Shown here in pieces: positions 15,855 to 16,420 of a stretch of DNA of 64,000 nucleotides; the first letter of the stretch is position 1; each line of letters opens with the position of its first letter. Position numbers and translations under genes: made by a program. A model generated the notes under the pieces. That model searched no databases, had not been told where the DNA came from, and was given only the letters and a program-made list of their open reading frames with translations. The stretch is from the NCBI GenBank assembly GCA_963701855.1, contig CAVPBK010000011.1, positions 217,171 through 281,170 of the forward strand. The letters are read 5' to 3'. This stretch comes from Nitrospirota bacterium. GTDB lineage: Bacteria > Nitrospirota > Nitrospiria > Nitrospirales > Nitrospiraceae.

Positions 15855-15872
15855 ATGAACCCAAGGTTGAGG

Positions 15873-16241
15873 TTAAGGTTGAGTAGTCCTGCGAAGTGAG
15901 CGAATCAATGCGTTGAGTTCTTTCCAGATTTCGTCGGTCAGCTTCATTGCAAGAATGCATTCACTCTGTTTGAAATACGATACCTTCTGTCCATAGATAA
16001 GATGGTTCTTCGTTTCAGCTAGTGATCCGCGAGAGGCGTAGTAGAAATTCAGTTTGTCCTTTGTGTGTTGACGACCAAATCCTTCAGCAAGATTTCCGGG
16101 AACCGAGAGGGCAGATCGTCTAACCTGCGAAGTCAACCCGTAATCTTCCTTTCTCGGAAGACTCTCGGTTAATGAAAATACCTTCTGGGCCAATTCCATG
16201 GCCTTTTGCCAAACCGGCATATCCTCGAAGGAACTAAACAC
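15873..16241 (-). CDS. Four-helix-bundle protein (23S rRNA IVP / bAvd-like family)
   Basis: SFEDMPVWQKAMEL, LPRKEDYGLTSQVRRSALSVPGNLAEGFGR and SRGSLAET. Confidence 0.92.
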   Translation of the reverse strand: MFSSFEDMPVWQKAMELAQKVFSLTESLPRKEDYGLTSQVRRSALSVPGNLAEGFGRQHTKDKLNFYYASRGSLAETKNHLIYGQKVSYFKQSECILAMKLTDEIWKELNALIRSLRRTTQP

Positions 16242-16248
16242 CCGTTGG

Positions 16249-16420
16249 CCTCAACCTTAGCGGAAGGCTTAGGTCTAGGTTAAGACCGAGGGAAAGGTTG
16301 AGGTCGAGATTAAGGTCAAGCACGGAAGCCATGAGCTGTCTGATCTCCCTCAATCCTCTCAACCTTCTCCAACCTCCTAACCTCCGCTTCTAACCTTCAA
16401 GCCTCCAACCTCAGCCTTTC
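16249..16420. repeat. Hexamer-repeat hairpin upstream of the four-helix-bundle gene
   Basis: AGGTYR array (16265-16320) facing a CAACCT array (16346-16417), overlapping the last gmd codons. Confidence 0.8.

Follow-up and report, generated by a model that had tools for sequence, protein, structure and literature searches.

Genes at the gmd-fcl junction

The window, that is, the whole stretch of 64,000 nucleotides that was analyzed, carries a small gene between gmd and a fcl-like gene (Table 1). The original prediction that this ORF splits gmd from fcl was borne out by domain searches, in which the ORF at 15873-16241 matched PF05635 (E 1.7e-33, 115.4 bits against a curated cut-off of 33.8) and TIGR02436 (114.4 bits against a cut-off of 24). 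The fcl-like start lies 18 nt past the stop of the four-helix-bundle gene, the spacing between gmd and the fcl-like gene is 542 nt in the source genome, and the GC content of the inserted gene is 45.5%, compared with 53 to 55% in the neighboring genes. Among the homologues listed for the 122-aa protein, the closest named ones are labeled Nitrospirota.

Table 1. Features of the gmd-fcl junction and hairpins elsewhere in the window
Feature	Position	Strand	Remarks
gmd, GDP-mannose 4,6-dehydratase	16397-17419	-	TIGR01472 above cut-off; stop within left arm
Left purine-rich arm	16349-16420	-	mRNA strand has RAGGYT hexamers mixed with GGAGGTT heptamers
Loop and pyrimidine arm of upstream hairpin	16262-16348	-	
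Proximal repeat unit	16249-16259	-	GAGG seven bases ahead of the GTG start
Four-helix-bundle gene (PF05635/TIGR02436)	15873-16241	-	122 aa, GTG start, stop in right arm
Right arm	15863-15883	-	Three and a half hexamers, inverted orientation
fcl-like GDP-L-fucose synthase	14892-15854	-	NF047922 E 2.8e-93, 312.7 bits, below its cut-off of 500
fcl codons 3-8 tract	15831-15848	-	In relatives, sequence varies with carriage of the cassette
Gene-less hexamer hairpin, gspF-gspG junction, MITE-like end adjoining	21921-22093	.	
Gene-less hexamer hairpin	13386-13498	.	Near-identical stretch in left arm of the G074 cassette
Gene-less hexamer hairpin with MITE-like end	13744-13813	.	
Hexamer hairpin carried within MITE-like element	2489-2595	.	

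As had also been predicted, neither a transposase nor a reverse transcriptase is encoded nearby (12000-23000): the closest integrases and transposases lie at 53211-63898, and reverse transcriptase genes are on other contigs, RVT_1 being confined in the source genome to contigs C9 and C14. The source genome does encode rnc. An insertion into 23S rRNA was rejected, as the cassette sits between gmd and fcl and an Rfam scan of 12000-23000 gave no match. A promoter and terminator scan returned nothing exceeding shuffled sequences.

Repeat arms and their predicted folding

Both registers of the predicted perfect 10-bp inverted repeat were exact (15863-15872/16249-16258 and 15874-15883/16250-16259), but the repeat is not the unique terminal repeat it had been taken for, since it represents one unit pair of the RAGGYT hexamer and the genome contains 40 copies of the 10-mer. 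The AGG core was almost invariant on either arm among 304 units counted beside exact seeds. A G-U asymmetry of the arm units was considered and rejected, with one position for it, one against it and the stop codon as a confounder. The right arm carries the stop codon of the four-helix-bundle gene, and the GAGG of the proximal unit is likely its ribosome-binding site. As claimed, the purine run of the upstream hairpin gives gmd its last codons and stop, but five extra codons are specific to this genome. In the relatives, gmd ends inside the first repeat unit, whereas one additional base in the source genome shifts the stop five codons further; this extra base at the gmd 3' end (window 16397-16425) may be a real change or an assembly error. 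The loop-arm stretch of the upstream hairpin is found again at window 22057-22098, with 88% identity over 42 nt.

According to the folding prediction, the left arm pairs with the other arm of the upstream hairpin and its outer end with the right arm. Across the predicted ensemble, the first register of the inverted repeat had a probability of about 0.05 and the second of about 0.74, while the outer half of the right arm paired with the gmd end at about 0.76. The predicted fold is nested, the proximal unit pairing with the inner right arm and the gmd end with the outer right arm, with the upstream hairpin in between and stems at 0.7 to 0.77. It depends on the segment folded, as a 662-nt segment gave no arm-to-arm pair above 0.3 in this genome, and the same alternative analysis gave arm-to-arm helices above 0.8 in 10 of the 13 filled alleles. 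Folding z-scores were modest (-2.17 for the unit and -1.59 for the hairpin by itself). A long-range coupling of the gmd end to the fcl start was rejected: carriers reached -11.2 kcal/mol and empty alleles -7.6 kcal/mol, but sister genomes were mixed. Pairing of a gene end with the start of the next gene was not elevated across 49 other junctions (p 0.93).

The insert had further been proposed as a possible mRNA intervening sequence. We looked at four RNA-labeled runs of mixed samples, available as assembled contigs only, with shares of 0.05 to 0.14; their contigs match relatives at 85 to 95% identity, and the source organism itself is absent from the runs. Two RNA contigs skip the insert, and the fully resolved one carries the empty-allele junction letters of a relative. 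One RNA contig of a relative runs, as weak evidence, across the right arm, and the left arm is without contig cover and uninformative. Nothing in these contigs supports splicing or excision, the resolved skip being an empty allele.

Occupancy of the gmd-fcl junction among relatives

We matched gmd in 63 of the 85 genomes of the genus and, setting aside truncated matches and paralogs at ≤63% identity, read 60 loci. Of these, 49 were scored and eleven dropped: in six a different gene followed downstream, three loci were broken or ended within gmd, one was arranged differently and one was cut at the junction. Nine junctions held the query gene, 87 to 99% identical and with an internal stop in the G020 copy, and one held a remnant of it. 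Four held a second family member, 36 to 37% identical, within arms of a GGAGGTT heptamer; one held a remnant of this second member, and one had arms without a gene. The other 33 were short, 12 with a 2-nt gap, 19 with 23 to 32 nt, one with 12 nt and one with 7 nt. This tally, with the query gene at 9 of 49 junctions and 33 junctions short, bears out the prediction of a repeat-bounded cassette whose presence at gmd-fcl varies among relatives. The junction states were scattered over the gmd tree, and carriers adjoined empty sisters in the starred clades, where bootstrap support is not fully settled; gain and loss are not separable from these junction counts.

No target-site duplication was visible by eye between filled and empty gmd-fcl junctions. 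Identity as an insertion sequence or MITE was rejected, as the arms are tandem units of varying number lacking unique terminal inverted repeats or a target-site duplication. A 30-nt short junction (L069-L087) resembles a fusion between the left heptamer-arm end and the right-hand terminus of the second type of cassette and could be either a deletion scar or a preferred target.

The dS was 0.56 for the cassette gene, 1.0 for gmd and 0.89 for fcl, and the gene's dS was below that of gmd in 31 of 32 pairs, which argues for a gene younger than its flanks, although the lower dS could instead reflect base composition or the shortness of the gene. The median dN/dS of 0.09 shows purifying selection. 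The tract comprising fcl codons 3 to 8 was compared in the five carriers having empty sisters, which belong to three clades. In all five, 6 to 8 of its 18 bases differed from the empty sister and 1 to 2 from the best carrier of another clade, and the windows after it followed the sister genome. This pattern would fit very-short-tract exchange or selection on these codons.

Arms across the protein family

PF05635 is very common in the genus, being present in 79 of the 85 genomes. Arms were found beside 123 of 209 family genes, kept from 224 hits as best-scoring family matches rather than a random sample, and beside 1 of 148 controls; 46 of 63 clusters included at least one arm-bearing member. 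In 44 non-hexamer clusters, the median for a cluster's own arm pairs was 14, compared with 1 for crossed pairs. Each PF05635 subfamily carries its own arm unit.

The pattern extends beyond the genus. From an alignment comprising 66 of the 120 homologues listed, we fetched 79 loci, titled Nitrospirota, Deltaproteobacteria, Elusimicrobia, Verrucomicrobia, Fibrobacterota, Bacteroidota and others, of which 63 lay between same-strand ORFs. Inverted flanks were found at p ≤0.01 in 42 of 78 loci and in 1 of 77 controls. The hexamer flanked the gene to the left and right alike in 38 of the 45 relatives sharing at least 60% identity (seven of them near-identical gmd-fcl loci) and in 0 of 77 controls, and arm unit and polarity were kept across many phyla. 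Out of sample, among 80 metagenome loci, at least three RAGGY units flanked 18 of 22 proteins with the query loop motif and 0 of the 20 most distant motif-bearing rows of the same table. Twenty-eight pattern matches on viral contigs yielded 0 confirmed cases, and the 11 plasmid records were all below 60% identity.

A restriction to surface loci, as once suggested, did not hold. The scan of 57 of 88 neighbors placed family genes at gmd-fcl, rmlA-rmlB, prsK-prsR and ccsB-hemA and beside nuoF, ychF, fabF, egtB and pseI, with close relatives at prsK-prsR, ccsB-hemA, nuoF, ychF and fabF. The expectation that paralogs have inverted arms of their own proved correct for most: of the five (G000:C5:239190, 252203, 271467 and 275105 and C6:1333022), three had arms at p 0.003, one at 0.037 and one at 0.19, each with its own 7- to 9-base unit. 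These paralogs are mostly truncated or contain stops, and four are grouped within 36 kb on C5; stops or frameshifts occur in several of them and also in G020 and G003.

Two or three close query-subfamily copies were seen per genome record at different junctions (L151, L152 and L154; L137/L138; L131/L139; L132/L148). In L057:3-2213 (G033:C172), a heptamer-armed PF05635 cassette lies inside a DNA-methyltransferase-like ORF of 736 aa, which crosses the whole cassette stop-free in another frame and seemingly also contains in-frame gene-less hairpins; in L051 (G037:C259), the same alternative frame also stays open, beginning just upstream and reaching the C-terminal part. Such alternative-frame read-through was found in 4 of the 209 genes, two of them in the methyltransferase gene and one likely a chance ORF.

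Gene-less hairpins and their association with the protein

The dispersed hairpins do share the cassette's unit, as originally claimed. Pairs of hexamers in the purine-then-pyrimidine order exceeded the reverse order 43 to 4 in the genome, and they merge into 38 RAGGYT hairpin loci, compared with 1 pair in the reversed genome. Hairpins lie directly after stops and just ahead of starts in several operons, and 12 of the 38 are within 90 nt of a MITE-like end, which is a separate route of spread. In the window, MITE-like ends at 2466-2640, 12784-12900, 13744-13830 and 21881-21920 often adjoin or enclose hexamer hairpins; 323 similar sites exist in the genome.

At three tight hairpin junctions of this genome, a hairpin was present in 8 of 24, 6 of 25 and 7 of 25 best-matching loci (own genome included), the remaining loci having short junctions or degenerate arms. 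At G000:C9:456059, inspection by eye of other genomes revealed a GTGCTGA hairpin in five, a TCAGC-type in two, a GTGAT-type in one and a TGAGTT-type in about seven; the GTGCTGA, TCAGC and GTGAT units belong to other subfamilies of the four-helix-bundle protein. That a single junction holds gene-less hairpins whose units differ from genome to genome is, as far as we can tell, a new observation.

Among the 85 genomes, with kinship uncorrected, carriers of the query subfamily had a median of 34.5 hexamer matches, compared with 2 (p 0.0017; p 0.08 after subtracting six matches for the gene's own arms). The same was found for the GTGCTGA subfamily (25 versus 2 matches, p 4e-6; 9e-5 after subtraction) but not for the TCAGC subfamily (13 versus 10.5, p 0.26), and none of the six mismatched subfamily-unit pairings was significant in these 85 genomes. 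Repeat abundance tracks the matching subfamily in two of three tests and in 0 of 6 mismatched ones, which may parallel the way hairpins follow their gene in RAYT/REPIN systems. The p values overstate the association because the genomes are kin and many are incomplete, and co-inheritance would by itself be enough to tie a subfamily to a unit. Ten of 75 genomes lacking the query gene still had at least 20 hexamer matches, and 3 of 10 carriers had ≤6.

Fold of the protein

To our knowledge, a function has been assigned to the PF05635 family only within DGRs, and we know of no catalytic activity for the four-helix-bundle fold. The model of the 122-aa protein is all-helical, with four helices (pLDDT 92.8), and matches the XCC0516 chains of 2GSC with a TM score of 0.89 and an rmsd of 1.0 (35% identity to XCC0516) and Avd (4DWL) with a TM score of 0.78. 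The protein thus has the same fold as Avd and XCC0516 and, like them, invariant basic residues in the alignment (K31, R41, R57, K63 and R71). Identity with DGR Avd itself was rejected, its NF033474 score of 23.9 being far below the cut-off of 80 bits and no reverse transcriptase being adjacent. PF05635 has been linked to Avd (PMC10053308). In a DGR structure, five of five Avd protomers are reported to contact an RNA stem-loop, with flipped RNA bases held between subunits (10.1101/2023.10.23.563531), and binding of the repeat by a ring is therefore plausible.

Two candidate residue-to-base codes were rejected. For residue 55, independent pairs were too few and the result was not significant. 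Residue 60 fitted 73 of 75 cases in the sample, but a preset prediction was unconfirmed: the polar cases were 31 G and 1 A, the sole hydrophobic case was contrary and two aromatic rows fitted only post hoc.

Comparison with known systems

The repeat-armed PF05635 gene is a member of a widespread cassette class, which may best be filed among ORF-bearing intervening sequences (IVSs), behaving like a RAYT/REPIN pair. The 23S rRNA IVS of Coxiella burnetii is described as having tandem heptamers upstream of its S23p ORF and as being cleaved by RNase III, and an older idea was that the S23p ORF served IVS mobility (PMC4990558). With ORF-bearing 23S IVSs (C. burnetii, and Leptospira as cited in PMC4990558) our cassette shares the protein family and an ORF inside inverted repeats, and with that of Coxiella, as portrayed in the same source, it shares tandem heptamers upstream of the ORF, a patchy distribution and signs of horizontal transfer. 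Its terminal inverted repeats are likewise predicted, in a manner sensitive to the segment folded, to form a stem around the ORF. Unlike the 23S IVSs, the insert lies between protein-coding genes, its hexamer arms provide stop codons, its gene is under purifying selection and it has gene-less sister hairpins.

RAYT/REPIN systems are similar in having a short, usually single-copy gene under purifying selection that is flanked by its own repeat type, as well as dispersed inverted-pair hairpins in intergenic space, of several types per genome (PMC3337134). Unlike a RAYT, our protein is a four-helix bundle without an HUH/Y motif, PF05635 being the only domain match of the all-helical protein, and the PF05635 gene itself changes place between lineages; unlike REPINs, which are single palindromes, the arms are tandem 6- to 9-mers. 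The cassette may nevertheless work like a RAYT/REPIN pair, though without known catalytic activity. Cyanobacterial STRRs are intergenic tandem short repeats, often in inverted pairs; they are not known to be linked to a protein family, and a literature search gave no such link either.

Interpretation

Taken together, the arms, the come-and-go at the junction and the repeat common to the gene-less hairpins indicate that the protein likely recognizes the repeat and likely aids its spread. We favor, at about an even chance, the view that this is a selfish cassette of operon junctions, with a protein that reads the cassette's repeat and aids the spread of cassette and hairpins via host recombination, while the arms keep the operon translatable. 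This reading builds on the observed anatomy, polymorphism, purifying selection, subfamily-specific arms and sister hairpins. In the proposed mechanism, operon junctions would acquire, lose and exchange a four-helix-bundle gene set between mirror-image RAGGYT arms. The protein would form an Avd-like ring, as the folds of 2GSC and Avd suggest; the ring would probably bind its own repeat and help the cassette and the gene-less hairpins to spread via host recombination. The arms supply the gmd stop and, by prediction, also close the insert into a loop. The cost to the operon would be low, because the arms provide both stops, that of gmd and that of the inserted gene 18 nt ahead of fcl, together with a likely ribosome-binding site.

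The protein could instead be a host regulator: bound to the repeat in mRNA, it would adjust how stable the transcripts are at many operon junctions, or how they are processed or translated, and the cassette would move solely through ordinary exchange of alleles, being retained for that benefit. Purifying selection, hairpins placed directly after stops and just before starts, hairpin abundance that tracks the protein and the presence of PF05635 in most genomes of the genus are consistent with such a role, which we nonetheless consider unlikely, given frequent loss and decay of the gene (with stops or frameshifts in several paralogs, G020 and G003), the interchangeability of units at one junction and the unraised pairing between gene ends and next starts at the 49 other junctions.

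An improbable reading, too, is that of a passive mRNA twin of the 23S rRNA IVS, in which the arms serve just as a stem in the RNA, whether or not RNase III cuts it, the gene hitchhikes and the units follow the subfamilies by descent. The Coxiella IVS, with its RNase III-cut stem of tandem heptamers and an ORF described as apparently expendable (PMC4990558), provides a precedent; the arm-to-arm helices of the filled alleles and the rnc gene of the source genome would also agree. A passive passenger is harder to reconcile with a dN/dS of 0.09, little G-U drift in the AGG core and genome-wide hairpin counts that follow the protein. The stems at this locus are moreover short and broken, and the RNA-library contig of a relative that spans the right arm argues weakly against it. 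Finally, coincidence, in which an ordinary small gene gathered dispersed MITE-borne hairpins in its intergenic flanks, is very improbable and already largely refuted: the 40 genomic copies of the 10-mer and the 12 hairpins near MITE-like ends fit it, but the arms beside 123 of the 209 family genes and just 1 of the 148 controls, the same unit and polarity in many phyla and the gene's own stop coming from the right arm do not.

Tentatively, and with less confidence than for the locus itself, we propose an undescribed system that resembles RAYT/REPIN but lacks a transposase of its own and has PF05635 proteins as its sequence-specific partners. The ring of each subfamily would bind one 6- to 9-base tandem unit and seed its own cassette and gene-less operon-junction hairpins across many phyla; ORF-bearing rRNA IVSs would then be copies that inserted into 23S rRNA, and DGR Avd would be a family member that was recruited. 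In the open literature, to which our search was confined, we found no account of repeat-armed PF05635 genes outside rRNA, nor a link between this family and intergenic hairpins. New from this locus are also a junction alternating between two subfamilies and the genus-wide link of subfamily to hairpin type. Should every subfamily bind a tandem unit of its own, there would be one testable explanation for the protein, the ORF-bearing rRNA IVSs and a large class of intergenic tandem-repeat hairpins, and natural protein-repeat pairs would be on hand for reciprocal binding tests.

Other features of the window

Elsewhere in the window, a region at 45046-55896 encoding a DUF3854/AAA_25 primase-helicase, a terminase small subunit and two tyrosine integrases has the appearance of a phage-satellite-type island and is followed by IS3- and IS21-type genes at 56164-63898. 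A Wzz/tyrosine-kinase gene seems to be split into two ORFs (7714-10049), and a UDP-glucose/GDP-mannose dehydrogenase ORF (2736-3983) matches part of its domains only.
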